Under the pieces are notes generated by a model, which did no database searches, was not told the DNA's origin, and was given only the letters and a program-made list of their open reading frames with translations. Made by a program: the position numbers and the translations under genes. 64,000 bases of DNA from a virus (lineage: Duplodnaviria > Heunggongvirae > Uroviricota > Caudoviricetes). The DNA lies in the IMG/VR virus record IMGVR_UViG_3300013901_000006, positions 15,774 to 79,773 of that record; one strand, given 5' to 3'. Shown here one piece after another: positions 42,453-57,169 of this stretch. Position 1 is the first letter of the stretch, and every line of letters begins with the position of its first letter.

Positions 42453-42536
42453 ATGTCTATGGGGGGGGGCATAGTATTTCACCTCTCCTCTCTAGAAAGG
42501 AGTCAATACTATGCCAAAAGCGTATTATCCAGTTAA
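42453..42536 (+). CDS. Poly-G leader peptide L2 (G9 at 42461-42469)
   Basis: MSMGGGIVFHLSSLERSQYYAKSVLSS* crosses the CTCCT/AGGAG SD hairpin. There is no SD for the leader itself. Confidence 0.5.
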   Translation: MSMGGGIVFHLSSLERSQYYAKSVLSS

Positions 42537-43770
42537 TGGTTCTTACAAAGAGTGGACACCAGATATGGTAGGAGCTGCTGCAAGTAGTCACACTCATGCT
42601 AAGGCTGATGTTGGATTAAGCAATGTAGATAATACGGCAGATGCAAATAAGTCTGTTAAATACGCAACGTCGGCTGGTAGCGCTACAACTGCTACTCAGC
42701 TATCCTCCTCTGCTGGTTCTACTACGCAGCCAGTATATTTTTCAAATGGAAAGCCAGTAGCAGCCACCGCATATTCAAGTGCTAGTGTAAATTATGCCAA
42801 TTCTTCCGGTTGGACGAAATCTTTAAATGGTGTAGCACATTATATTTCAACAGATACAAATACAGTACCTTATTATAGAATTGCAACGGTCGATACGAAT
42901 AGTTCTTATATGGATGCTTCTCTAGTTTTGTCACTAGACCAAGGATACCAAGACTCTTATTTTGGTATTTGCCGCATTTCTATGCGTACTGATGATATTG
43001 CTTCTGGTCAAACGGGGAGTTGCCATTGCGCTGTTGAATGGCTCGTTAATAACGGTATAGACAATTCAAAACTATTTTGTAATGTTTATTCTAAAGCTGG
43101 CGCCACTTGCTATGTAGACTTATATTTTAAAGCAACTAGTTCTTATGAAGGAGTTAACTTTAGAGTTATTTCGAATGGTTCAAGAGGTTCTAATGGTAGC
43201 ATTTGGGTACTGACAGGAGATGAACCAAGGGCTGCGGCAGATATTAGGACATATACGCAAACGAATGTCACAGCAAGTAATGTCGGTAGAGTAAACCATG
43301 CCAATAGCGCTGATAGCGCAAGTTCCGTTGTATGGACAAATGTCTCAGGCAGGCCATCAAGTATGCCCGCAAGCGATGTTTCATCTTGGGCAAAGGCATC
43401 ATCCAAACCTTCGTACTCTTGGAGTGAGATTTCATCTAAACCAACATTTGCCACTGTCGCTACAAGTGGTTCTTATAATGATTTATCTAATAAACCAACA
43501 ATTCCATCTGTAGGTAATGGTACTATTACAGTAACACAAGGTGGGACCTCCAAAGGTTCTTTTACGTTGAACCAATCTGGCAATGCAACCATCGCACTTA
43601 ACGACACAAATACTTGGAGAGGCGTTCAAAATAATTTAACTTCTACTGCGACCGATCAATCGCTCTCTGCGGCACAAGGTAAGATTTTAAATGATAAGTT
43701 AAATAGCCTTATTACTATTTCAAGCACTCAGCCAACAAGTAATGATTGTAAAATTTGGATTAAAATTTAA
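42511..43770 (+). CDS. Fibre extension / receptor-binding module
   Basis: 419 aa; N-terminal MPKAYYPVNGSYKEW, variable central domain, C-terminal QPTSNDCKIWIKI. Confidence 0.7.
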   Translation: MPKAYYPVNGSYKEWTPDMVGAAASSHTHAKADVGLSNVDNTADANKSVKYATSAGSATTATQLSSSAGSTTQPVYFSNGKPVAATAYSSASVNYANSSGWTKSLNGVAHYISTDTNTVPYYRIATVDTNSSYMDASLVLSLDQGYQDSYFGICRISMRTDDIASGQTGSCHCAVEWLVNNGIDNSKLFCNVYSKAGATCYVDLYFKATSSYEGVNFRVISNGSRGSNGSIWVLTGDEPRAAADIRTYTQTNVTASNVGRVNHANSADSASSVVWTNVSGRPSSMPASDVSSWAKASSKPSYSWSEISSKPTFATVATSGSYNDLSNKPTIPSVGNGTITVTQGGTSKGSFTLNQSGNATIALNDTNTWRGVQNNLTSTATDQSLSAAQGKILNDKLNSLITISSTQPTSNDCKIWIKI

Positions 43771-43786
43771 TAAAACTAGTTTAATT

Positions 43787-43820
43787 GAGGATTAGAAAAA
43801 TTTTCTAATCCTCTTTTTTT
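43787..43820 (+). terminator. Rho-independent terminator
   Basis: GAGGATTAGAAAA/TTTTCTAATCCTC stem + T7. Confidence 0.85.
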
Positions 43821-43903
43821 GTTGGACAAAAAAGTATAATTTACACTGTATTTCTTTCATATTTTATAGGCTATGTTGAAATAGAAAGGAATATTGCTGT
43901 AAT

Positions 43904-44431
43904 ATGGATGCTTTATCTCAATTATTTTCACAATATTCTTTGGAGACTATTATTATTTTGATAGTTTCGCTTGCGGTTGCTTTTAAATTTATTAGCGAAC
44001 TTGTTGAATATTTTTATGAGAAACTGAAAGCGTATTTCAATCATCAATCTGTGAAAGATAGAAAGCATTCTGAAATCATGGAAGGCTTAACCAATGTGCG
44101 GCAAGAGGTTTCAACTTTATCTTCTAAAATCAATGAACAATCAGAAGAGATTAAACAACTTAAAGAGCATGAAAAGCTAACCATGGAAAGGCTTCAAGAG
44201 AATTCTCGAAGCTATATTATAGATAAACACCACTATTTCTGTTATGAGATTAAAGCGATTGATGATTTAAATTTACAATCCTTGGAACGCAGATATTTAT
44301 ATTATAAAGCGGCAGGAGGAAATTCATTTATTGATGGTCTTATGGAAGAAATTCGTGAATTACCGAGGATAAATCTTTCTAATCCTCAAATAATTAAAAC
44401 TATACAAAGTGAAACCGAAAGGAGTGAATAA
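43904..44431 (+). CDS. Membrane protein, holin/XhlA-like
   Basis: Single N-terminal hydrophobic helix followed by a coiled coil. Confidence 0.4.
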   Translation: MDALSQLFSQYSLETIIILIVSLAVAFKFISELVEYFYEKLKAYFNHQSVKDRKHSEIMEGLTNVRQEVSTLSSKINEQSEEIKQLKEHEKLTMERLQENSRSYIIDKHHYFCYEIKAIDDLNLQSLERRYLYYKAAGGNSFIDGLMEEIRELPRINLSNPQIIKTIQSETERSE

Positions 44432-45250
44432 ATGAGTCAGGAATTAAAAGCAGTTACGGTTAATTTGAAATCACTTGACCAAGATATTCAAGACCCGATT
44501 GTTGCTGGTGGCGCTGATGCCAATGGCCGCACTTTTAGAATCATTTTCGACCAAGAAGCAGCTGCTCAAATTACTCCTGAAACTAAAGTATATCTTAGTT
44601 GGTTTCATCGCCAAAAGAAGGTAAAAGGATATAATGTCTTTACTCAGACCAATGATGACCCAATTATATGGGAAATTCATTGGCCGCAAGCGATGTTACT
44701 TGAAGGCGATGTGCTTTGTTGTATCGAACTGGTTGATAGTGTTTCAATTGCTCAGTCAACTAATTTTGTTGTACACGTATTATCTGACCCGAATGACGGT
44801 TCTTCTTTTGTCGTATCCGATGATTTCAGTTTATTTCAAAATGCGGTAATTCGTCTCAATTGCATCGGCGACCAGATGAAAAAGCAAATGATTGCTCAAA
44901 AAATTGAATTCGAAGATATGCTTCTTGAATTCGGTAAAGTTAAAGTCGCTGCCAAAGATGCGGTTGATACTGCCAATGCTGCTGCCGATAAAGCTGATAA
45001 AGCAGCTGAAAAGGCTGATGAGGCTATTGAACGAGTTGAGGCTATTGGCAATAAAGCTGATGAAACATTAGAAGAAGCTAAAAAGTCATTAGAAATTGTT
45101 GATGCTCGCATAGATTCTAAATTAGATAAAGATAAGTGTGGCATTGACTTTGATAATGATATTCAAACTATTAAAGATTATGTAGATAGACAGATTCAAA
45201 CTCCTCACTTGGAAATGATTAATTTCGATGAATTGGTAGAGGAGGATTAA
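44432..45250 (+). CDS. BppU-like baseplate upper / fibre-anchoring protein
   Basis: N-terminal ...DANGRTFRII... beta domain followed by an Ala-rich coiled coil. Confidence 0.5.
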   Translation: MSQELKAVTVNLKSLDQDIQDPIVAGGADANGRTFRIIFDQEAAAQITPETKVYLSWFHRQKKVKGYNVFTQTNDDPIIWEIHWPQAMLLEGDVLCCIELVDSVSIAQSTNFVVHVLSDPNDGSSFVVSDDFSLFQNAVIRLNCIGDQMKKQMIAQKIEFEDMLLEFGKVKVAAKDAVDTANAAADKADKAAEKADEAIERVEAIGNKADETLEEAKKSLEIVDARIDSKLDKDKCGIDFDNDIQTIKDYVDRQIQTPHLEMINFDELVEED

Positions 45251-55855: not shown

Positions 55856-56301
55856 TGGCTAACTTCGTTAATCTCATGGATGTTATCTATCCTATTGGAA
55901 GTATATATGTTACCACAAGTGCCTCTAGCCCTTCAAGTATTGTTGGTGGAACTTGGTCTAAAATTGATAATGCATTTCTGTATTGCAACAACTCAAATTC
56001 AGGATATGTTGGCTCTAATCTTGTAACACTTAATTTAGACCATAATCATTTTCAAAGTTTAGCCTTTCCTGCTGGAAAAGTTACATACAGTACTAATCGA
56101 ACTGGTATTGGATGGCACGAAGGAAATGCGTCGATACCCGTAAACCCGATATTAACCGCCGATTCTAATTATAATCGGACTACTGATTCTTCTTTTTGGG
56201 GACAGGACTCAGCCAAACAAGCCCAAAAGAGACTAGGGAATGTGACCTTTGATAATAAACCGCATAGTTTGACATGTTATGGATATACTAGAACAGCCTA
56301 A
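55855..56301 (+). CDS. Gp10_C-like tip module M4
   Basis: Conserved ends ...YTRTA*. Confidence 0.75.
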   Translation: MANFVNLMDVIYPIGSIYVTTSASSPSSIVGGTWSKIDNAFLYCNNSNSGYVGSNLVTLNLDHNHFQSLAFPAGKVTYSTNRTGIGWHEGNASIPVNPILTADSNYNRTTDSSFWGQDSAKQAQKRLGNVTFDNKPHSLTCYGYTRTA

Positions 56302-56345
56302 GAAGATTTTATAATATTCTTTCTATTTAATTAGAAAGGATATAA

Positions 56346-56719
56346 ATGAGTAATTATGTAAACCTACTGGATATTGTGTATCCAGTAGGTTCAATCTATC
56401 ACAGCATGAATTCAACTTCACCTGCTACAAGCATTGGTGGCACATGGACAGCAATTAAAACTTTTCTGTTAGGTTCTACCACTTCTGGTAAGACTGGCGG
56501 AGAAGAAGTACATACGCTTACCATTAATGAAATGCCTGCGCATTCTCACGCGCAATATGTTACAGCAAACAGTGGCAATGAATCAGTTAGAAGCGACTAT
56601 TCTCGTGACCAACATGGTCTTATTTATCCACAGGGATGCGATACTGGTACCACGGGGGGCAAGCACACAACAATATGCCGCCCTACACGACTTGCTTCAT
56701 TTGGTACAGAACAGCTTAG
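56346..56719 (+). CDS. Gp10_C-like tip module M5, frameshifted at G6 (56654-56659)
   Basis: G7 gives GQAHNNMPPYTTCFIWYRTA* (stop 56717-56719). As assembled, the frame runs on to 57170. Confidence 0.8.
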
Positions 56720-56755
56720 TCGTACTGAAAGCAAACCTTCTAAGCGAGGTGGCGT

Positions 56756-57148
56756 ATGTCTAACTACGTTAACCTCTTGGACATCGTTTACCCAGTGGGT
56801 GCAGTTTATATCTCAAACAATTCAACAACACCAGCAAACATTATCGGAGGTACTTGGACAAAAGTTGCATCGGATACATTCATCTGCTCTGGGACACCAA
56901 ATGCAACGGGTGGAACAAATACTCAAAAGCTCTCCGTTAGCAATTTGCCATCGAACGTTTGGCTTACGGGTGGAACTTGCAAAAACTTTGGTTTACCGAC
57001 AGCACTATCTACATTGTTTAGTTCAGTTACCACATTTGGTATTGAAGCATCTCGTATTACAGATGACAAAACTCAACAATATAGTTATGAACCTTTCGAT
57101 AACCGTCCGCAATATAGAGCTTTTAACATCTATTACCGCACAGCCTAG
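56756..57148 (+). CDS. Gp10_C-like tip module M6
   Basis: Conserved ends ...YYRTA*. Confidence 0.75.
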   Translation: MSNYVNLLDIVYPVGAVYISNNSTTPANIIGGTWTKVASDTFICSGTPNATGGTNTQKLSVSNLPSNVWLTGGTCKNFGLPTALSTLFSSVTTFGIEASRITDDKTQQYSYEPFDNRPQYRAFNIYYRTA

Positions 57149-57169
57149 TCTTCTAGGAGGTGTTGCATA

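Follow-up and report, generated by a model that had tools for sequence, protein, structure and literature searches.

Coupling of translation through an occluded ribosome-binding site is a classic arrangement, known from the coat gene of phage MS2 with its replicase and lysis genes, from rpmI-rplT of Escherichia coli, and from genes V-VII of phage f1. In phage T4, a hairpin hides the starts of genes e, soc, and 49 on long transcripts, and release comes via a promoter inside the hairpin; translation of these late genes is thereby confined to a subset of their mRNAs. Here we analyze hairpins over the starts of an array of tail-tip cassettes, M1-M7, and of fiber modules of like build that are associated with poly-G tracts in a 145-kb gut phage; the window analyzed is a stretch of 64,000 nucleotides (bases 15774-79773 of the IMG/VR record IMGVR_UViG_3300013901_000006). 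The nearest experimentally established system is pil1 of Streptococcus gallolyticus, in which GCAGA repeats within a short leader open reading frame (ORF) set the frame (Danne et al. 2014, PMC3894217). The short frame of pil1 stops ~39 nt ahead of a stem-loop and the longer frames end in or past it; ribosomes in the long frames destabilize this stem-loop, which is a transcription terminator, and the downstream genes are turned on (PMC3894217). In Campylobacter Fletchervirus, hypermutable polyG tracts in receptor-binding genes give rise to host-recognition subpopulations (Sorensen et al. 2021, summarized in 10.1101/2025.10.21.683753); in that summary the tracts lie inside genes, and leader ORFs, stops on start codons, and locked sites are not part of the description.

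As in pil1, a simple-sequence repeat in a short leader ORF shifts the frame and the short frame ends upstream of a stem-loop. Unlike pil1, with its terminator, its GCAGA repeat, and its single bacterial operon, the array described here has stems that include the Shine-Dalgarno sequence (SD) or the start codon, poly-G as its repeat, and a chain of many units in a phage operon; moreover, its ON-frame stop falls across the start codon, which implies that ribosomes terminate there and then re-initiate. With the classic coupled genes the array shares a sequestered downstream start, an overlap of stop and start and, as we propose, opening by upstream ribosomes. There the upstream gene is fixed, whereas in this array a hypermutable tract determines the frame of the upstream ORF, which is either a leader or a frameshifted cassette, and this would make the coupling switchable. 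A phage start site sequestered in a hairpin is also common to T4 e, soc, and 49, but the conserved box ATCTAATATC of the 5' arm found here was rejected as a genome-wide promoter-like motif (three exact copies; 36 copies with one mismatch vs 29 in shuffles). Insofar as the summary of the Fletchervirus work describes them, its in-gene tracts resemble those of M3 and M5, and the leader tracts are not of that type. No example of a hidden ribosome-binding site coupled to a phase-variable leader ORF turned up in a literature search, and the pilus case of B. breve was discarded as a precedent because it involves ORF fusion, not coupling. The parts, contingency repeats and occluded-site coupling, are known; we did not find their combination described, and it constitutes a well motivated but unproven mechanism.

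The proteins M1-M7 are alternative tail-tip (receptor-binding) gene products of the Gp10_C type. They are stand-alone proteins of 128-157 amino acids belonging to the Gp10_C family (PF21939), whose domain is annotated in phages of Streptococcus and Lactobacillus as antireceptor or tail protein, and the larger genes beside them carry phage fiber repeats. Six G tracts of at least 8 nt occur in the whole genome, all of them on the coding strand and in the tail-fiber part of the window, at 41964 (G11), at 42461, 54207, 54755, and 55320 (G9 each), and at 55769 (G8). Shorter runs are found at 52621 and 56654 (G6 each). All features located below lie on the plus strand.

The explanation that we favor, with a probability of roughly 0.6, is that the starts of this array are locked by hairpins and would be opened by ribosomes arriving in frames set by the poly-G tracts. 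Only the first small leader ORF of each operon would offer an accessible ribosome-binding site. At later starts, whether of a cassette or of an internal leader, the SD or start codon would be paired, so that free 30S subunits would seldom initiate; a ribosome already on the mRNA would instead read through the hairpin, terminate on the start codon (TAATG, ATGA, or xTGnnnTAA), and re-initiate via a strong, normally hidden SD. The length of a G7-G11 tract, located either in a leader of 15-45 codons or at the C-terminus of the preceding cassette, in its GGG motif, would pick the ORF that carries the ribosome: one frame would deliver it to the next start, and the others would stop well upstream or, in some units, cross a whole cassette. 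Tract slippage would thereby switch the flow of ribosomes between the alternative receptor-binding tips. Observed features of the array are the stems, the degree to which they exceed those of other genes in stability, and a frame geometry conserved among relatives; what we infer is a block of initiation by the hairpins in vivo, their opening by upstream ribosomes, and a high rate of slippage at the tracts.

Eleven starts were tested, namely those of four fiber genes (F1ext, F2, F3ext, and 53806) and of M1-M7. Local folds of each initiation region were scored against 200 dinucleotide shuffles, and an opening cost was calculated as the free-energy price of forcing positions -17 to +4 into single-stranded form. 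All eleven shuffle z-scores were negative (F1ext -3.8, F2 -2.0, F3ext -0.5, 53806 -2.1, M1 -3.1, M2 -1.7, M3 -3.2, M4 -1.9, M5 -3.3, M6 -1.0, and M7 -4.2), with a Stouffer z of about -8. The median opening cost of the eleven starts was 12.6 kcal/mol, compared to 4.9-7.1 kcal/mol for the 152 other genes of the genome across four folding contexts (Mann-Whitney U test, p from 9.5e-8 to 9.8e-6), and the five most occluded of the 56 genes in the window were M7, M3, M2, M4, and M1. Genes with a strong SD (n=51) had medians of 3.9-6.1 kcal/mol, below the eleven starts. The median was 6.1 kcal/mol for 25 ordinary stop/start-coupled genes, in which a long upstream ORF ends next to the start, and excess occlusion is therefore not general to the coupled genes of this phage. 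Initiation regions of the cassettes are richer in GC than those of controls (0.40 vs 0.33); with GC regressed out, a residual excess of +6.3 kcal/mol was retained (p 6e-6). An earlier note on this DNA, made from the sequence alone, had claimed that each switched cassette has its SD or start codon locked in a hairpin, a claim that equally stable hairpins at non-switched genes would have undermined. As a group, the other genes are not equally occluded, and the claim holds for the median excess; applied to each cassette it was overstated, as F2, F1ext, F3ext, and M6 are weak.

The ten stems which that note had named are all present, with arm pairs at 54267/54282 (M1), 54781/54794 (M2), 55352/55379 and 55361/55369 (M3), 55830/55840 (M4), 56735/56746 (M6), 57144/57153 (M7), 42485/42498 (F2), 52635/52647 (F3ext), and 41990/42011 (F1ext). 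They proved to be the dominant local fold for F1ext, F2, F3ext, 53806, M1, and M2, and not for M3, M4, M6, and M7, where folding predicts another helix of greater strength that joins the SD to the start codon or to codons 1-9 of the cassette. Among the fiber genes, the F1ext hairpin is a 12-bp stem (41990-42001/42009-42020) that places GTG 42008 at the junction of loop and stem, without an SD. F2 has a moderate hairpin (62nd percentile) whose outer stem (42471-42478/42505-42512) reaches over the first two bases of the ATG and whose inner stem pairs CUCCU (42485-42489) with AGGAG (42498-42502). At F3ext, GCCAAU (52635-52640) pairs with AUUGGC (52647-52652), which holds TTG 52648, at an opening cost of 12 kcal/mol; the tract of this unit is G6 (52621-52626) here and G9-G10 in relatives. 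A 9-bp stem (53777-53785/53791-53799) covers the SD of the gene starting at TTG 53806.

In the M array, the M1 hairpin (54267-54289; UAACCUCC/GGAGGUUA) pairs an anti-SD arm with the SD, and its architecture recurs in 19 loci, including variants in which a weaker SD goes with a weaker stem. The M2 hairpin (54781-54799; GCCCUC/GAGGGU) lies over the SD with an opening cost of 15 kcal/mol; in a longer folding context, the G tract of the M2 leader competes for its C-rich arm. For M3, a 10-bp stem (55364-55373/55379-55388) joins the SD arm to the arm holding TTG 55382. The SD of M4, GGAGUUGGUC, pairs with codons 1-4 (GGCUAACUUC; 55841-55850/55857-55866), a helix kept in six relatives. M5 has a 12-bp stem (56314-56343) over its SD, AAAGGA, and is locked even though it has neither a leader nor a poly-G tract in front. 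In M6, the SD GAGGUGGCGUA pairs with codons 4-7 (56746-56756/56765-56776; 12-14 kcal/mol, the z-score above being that of the local fold), and this stem is seen again in relatives. The strongest lock of the window, at 17-19 kcal/mol, belongs to M7, where UCUAGGAGGU pairs with ACCUCCUAGA at codons 6-9 (57152-57161/57186-57195) and an inner stem covers the ATG.

The same kind of array was detected by protein and pattern searches in ~25 related viral contigs (L numbers below designate these and other phages) and in further gut metagenome contigs. The 120 metagenome pattern matches were mostly unrelated environmental DNA, and only low-GC loci with at least two tracts were kept; the start calls of F1ext and of a few relatives were curated by hand. 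In eight relatives, 36 units had a median opening cost of 13.0 kcal/mol against 5.7 kcal/mol for 45 control genes of the same loci (p 4e-13), and 31 more units known from metagenomes only had a median of 12.0 kcal/mol. Pooling and de-duplication yielded 70 unique initiation regions 3' of tracts of G7 or longer, of which the 59 with stop-on-start geometry had a median cost of 12.5 kcal/mol. These 59 units fall into 25 clusters at 70% identity, with a median of cluster medians of 13.3 kcal/mol; every cluster exceeds the control median, and 16 of the 20 strong-SD clusters exceed the control 90th percentile. Units without an SD (the F1ext type) are less occluded, and SD strength tracks lock strength in the units (rho -0.40) but not in controls. 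Stem arms vary by unit type (ACCUCCC/GGGAGGU, GCCCUCU/AGAGGGU, and GCCUC/GAGGU, among others), and the SD or start codon is always involved. Across 11 distinct sequences of the M3-type stem, 98% of cells are paired and nine of the ten pairs vary, including two double-sided changes, one of them alongside a change of the start codon from TTG to ATG; only 2-5 of 500 shuffles matched this conservation. Since the sequences are related, we regard the covariation as supportive, not conclusive. Between assemblies, tract length varies (G7-G11) among homologous units whose flanks are nearly the same.

Stop-on-start geometry was observed in most of the pooled units: one post-tract frame stops at -5 to +5 of the downstream start in 57 of 70, and within 8 nt in 59 of 70, compared to 37% for virtual tracts placed before control genes (p 9e-16). 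The earlier note had held that the hairpins supply the mechanism of the poly-G switches, and this geometry (59/70 vs 37%) fits the coupling on which such a mechanism would depend. Leaders have their own SD and 5-14 codons ahead of the tract, and G7-G11 tracts were found in 36 leader ORFs; as assembled, 11 of 36 leaders among relatives have their stop on the start. In-gene tracts of receptor-binding genes comprise those of M3 (G8) and M5 (G6) and 22 units in relatives. For these in-cassette tracts the canonical stop lies 21-27 nt before the next start and the remaining frames end on the next start. A third frame, open for ~500 nt over an entire cassette and ending at -2 or +4 of the cassette after it, exists in five units from three phages (window 56654-57170, L009 6313, L015 6325, and L018 756 and 3119).

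The leader of F1ext (L-F1, 41944-42015) starts at ATG 41944, has its G11 at 41964-41974, and has an open ribosome-binding site (z +1.9); its assembled frame is ON, with TGA 42013-42015 overlapping codons 2-3 of F1ext. The F2 leader (L-F2, 42453-42536; ATG 42453 or 42459, G9 42461-42469) is non-canonical and lacks an SD, and its assembled frame passes the F2 ATG at 42511 and stops 23 nt beyond. For M1, the leader L-M1 (54178-54227) has GTG 54178, the SD AAAGGAG, and G9 at 54207-54215; the assembled frame ends at TAG 54225 (OFF), and G8 or G11 would bring the end to TAA 54292, overlapping the M1 ATG at 54294. L-M2 (54723-54779; ATG 54723, G9 54755-54763) is likewise OFF as assembled, with TAA 54777 just 5' of the M2 hairpin, and another frame ends at 54808 (+5 of the M2 ATG at 54803). 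L-M3 (55288-55389; ATG 55288, G9 55320-55328) is ON, its TAA at 55387 overlapping codons 2-3 of M3. Within M3, the G8 in the C-terminal GGG motif (55769-55776) is followed by a canonical stop at 55828 and, in the other frames, by stops at 55853 and 55860, both on the M4 start. The G6 of M5 (56654-56659) forms a three-way selector with stops at 56717 (canonical), at 56761 (+5 of the M6 ATG), and at 57168 (-2 of the M7 ATG, after 508 nt open across M6).

In most leader units, the OFF-frame stops lie at -36 to -82 and the ON stops on the start. When a terminating ribosome was modeled on each OFF-frame stop and the residual lock energy was computed, stops at least 36 nt upstream left the lock intact (median residual 12.9 kcal/mol), those at -35 to -24 left it partly open (8.2 kcal/mol), and nearer ones left it largely open. 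Clean OFF cases are the M1, M3, L018-317, L012-4882/6467, and L014-6631 types.

A small hairpin stands right after each leader G tract, its 5' arm beginning with the last G's (for example 54213-54230 and 55327-55345). These post-tract hairpins start 0-1 nt after the tract in 29 distinct leader units (median z -2.8, Stouffer -14), are short (5-10 bp), and have non-homologous arms such as GGGCUAC..GUAGCUU, CUAU/AUAG, CAGUUG/CAACUG, and CUGGU/ACCAG; the OFF-frame stop codons sit in the 3' arm. Slippage aid, frameshift stimulator, and insulator of the G run are candidate roles for them.

The M array forms one operon bounded by terminator-like hairpins, one with a T run at 54098-54125, which closes the preceding operon, and one at 57677-57706. 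An A14 run (57652-57665) lies between the end of M7 and the latter. The only open ribosome-binding site of the array is that of L-M1 (4.7 kcal/mol, z +1.5). Both internal leaders are locked by hairpins over the leader SD and ATG, L-M2 at 54689-54731 (z -4.4), with the box AUCUAAUAUC as 5' arm, and L-M3 at 55262-55291 (AAUAUCC/GGAUAUU; z -4.4). In relatives (L012, L014, L018, and others), the box AUCUAAUAUC pairs in some units with the leader SD (GGAUAUU) and in others with the initial codons of the leader (AUGAUAUUAGAU). The stop of the preceding cassette lies 28-45 nt before the leader start in M2- and M3-type units, and a terminating ribosome would therefore abut or enter the 5' arm. The divergent arrays of L012 and L018 share this layout of terminator, open first leader, and locked internal starts. 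As M5, L-M2, and L-M3 are locked at the same strength as the switched starts, occlusion, which the earlier note had described for switched cassettes, is not confined to them and is a property of the whole array. More tentatively, with odds that we put somewhat below even, we propose a "ribosome relay" operon, in which ribosomes would load at a single site and the G tracts would hand them over, drop them, or carry them past a cassette, generating combinatorial host-range variants through translation. In such an operon, hairpins starting 8-13 nt past the stop of a cassette, with the next start at their 3' base, might be the hand-over devices, a suggestion that we hold with the same reserve. This arrangement would be the most economical reading of the layout, and it keeps and widens the idea of occluded sites opened by upstream ribosomes.

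Several observations weigh against ribosome-opened locks as the explanation of the array. The whole case is built on thermodynamic prediction in isolated windows of 65-155 nt. Some starts are individually unremarkable, namely F2 (62nd percentile), F1ext (76th percentile), and, by z-score, F3ext and M6. The non-switched gene 47428 is equally occluded (13-15 kcal/mol, z -2.0; 47378-47452). A test of sense against antisense stability was uninformative, as units and controls both fold better in sense. The hairpins of M5, L-M2, and L-M3 are traversed by no ORF; either termination 8-13 nt upstream opens these locks or they serve otherwise. OFF stops abut the hairpin in M2-type, L012-5501-type, and F1ext units (residual of at most 7-8 kcal/mol), and none of the three frames of the F3ext unit ends more than 8 nt from the start. 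Neither the assembled frames of L-M1 and L-M2 nor M5 have a stop on the start. Finally, with L-M1 OFF as assembled, no gene of the operon would be expressed under a strict relay.

The occlusion of gene 47428, together with equal locks on M5, L-M2, and L-M3 in the absence of a traversing ORF, is what would be expected if the hairpins were general translational dampers or mRNA stabilizers that keep tip proteins at low copy, and if poly-G acted independently through truncation or simple re-initiation. We consider this unlikely: stop-on-start geometry is far above chance, it is difficult to see why alternative frames should stay open for ~500 nt and end on the next start if the delivery of ribosomes did not matter, and lack of structure is specific to the first leader of each operon (z +1.5 and +1.9). 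Slightly less probable again is the idea that a G tract with its small 3' hairpin is a site of ribosomal frameshifting or transcriptional slippage, which would apportion a fixed fraction of products to each frame instead of, or besides, switching at the DNA level; downstream, the locked ribosome-binding sites would act as in the explanation that we favor. Homopolymers of at least 9 nt are known slippage sites, and the 29 distinct leader tracts with a hairpin at 0-1 nt and non-homologous arms would suit this idea. The post-tract hairpins are short, however, and DNA-level change of the tracts does occur, because assembled lengths differ between near-identical relatives.

A stop upstream of the hairpin in the OFF frame and beyond it in the ON frame is also the logic of pil1 (Danne et al. 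2014, PMC3894217), and the hairpins could in principle terminate RNA polymerase unless translation of the leader in its long frame stops them from forming. A U-rich run lies 3' of the 53806 hairpin, which was flagged as terminator-like in our terminator scan, and such attenuation is plausible at 53806 alone. The M1-M7 hairpins, in contrast, have no U tract and were not flagged, and as terminators the cassette hairpins were ruled out by the scan, with the possible exception of 53806. In the M1-M7 hairpins the SD or start codon consistently lies within an arm, and the ON stop falls within a few nucleotides of the start codon, a placement unneeded for control of transcription; we judge attenuation quite improbable as an account of the array. 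That the stems are a chance or compositional by-product of G-rich SDs in C/U-rich surroundings is the least credible of the alternatives and scarcely to be entertained. The higher GC of the cassette initiation regions (0.40 vs 0.33) and the shortness of several stems named in the earlier note (3-6 bp) would agree with it, but the GC-corrected residual, the negative z-scores of all 11 starts, and the lower, not higher, occlusion of strong-SD controls run counter to it, as do the repetition in 25 independent clusters and the compensatory changes in the M3-type stem.

If starts locked by hairpins and opened by ribosomes in poly-G-set frames are indeed what this array encodes, a family of ~140-kb gut phages would control at least seven receptor-binding tips purely by the routing of ribosomes, with contingency repeats and occluded-site coupling joined into a programmable array. 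Phage phase variation would then reach beyond in-gene frameshifts, and the array would offer a compact model of re-initiation across hairpins. It would also matter for host-range prediction, as annotation pipelines would call most of the cassettes constitutively expressed. It is through the hairpins that the switch hypothesis becomes open to mechanistic tests.

Regarding the wider genome, the nearest capsid proteins are those of uncultured human-gut phages (50%) and of ~140-kb Enterococcus phages (38%), which suggests a Firmicute as host; a megablast search of 40000-58000 against cultured phage records gave no match, and neither did the Rfam 15 covariance models against 41500-58000, up to E = 1. 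In phages without poly-G (L013 and L016-L025), Gp10_C forms the C-terminus of tail proteins of 330-1200 amino acids, and their starts are not unusually occluded, whereas the family of the present phage has the domain as a separate gene of 130-160 amino acids. Gene 47428 begins 33 nt past the stop of the gene upstream. In the 53806 unit (53761-53806), the tract stands directly 3' of an ATG that is in frame with the gene. This tract (G4) and the one at 52621-52626 (G6) correspond to G8-G10 in L026, L065, L078, and L143, with otherwise identical flanks, and the two switches may have decayed or become locked in the source phage. Every fiber module closes with the C-terminal motif C-K-[IL]-W-[IV]-[KQ]-x or a close variant (41905-41930, 42412-42436, 43746-43770, 52563-52587, 53711-53735, and 54066-54090), which suggests a common docking or folding element of otherwise different fibers.

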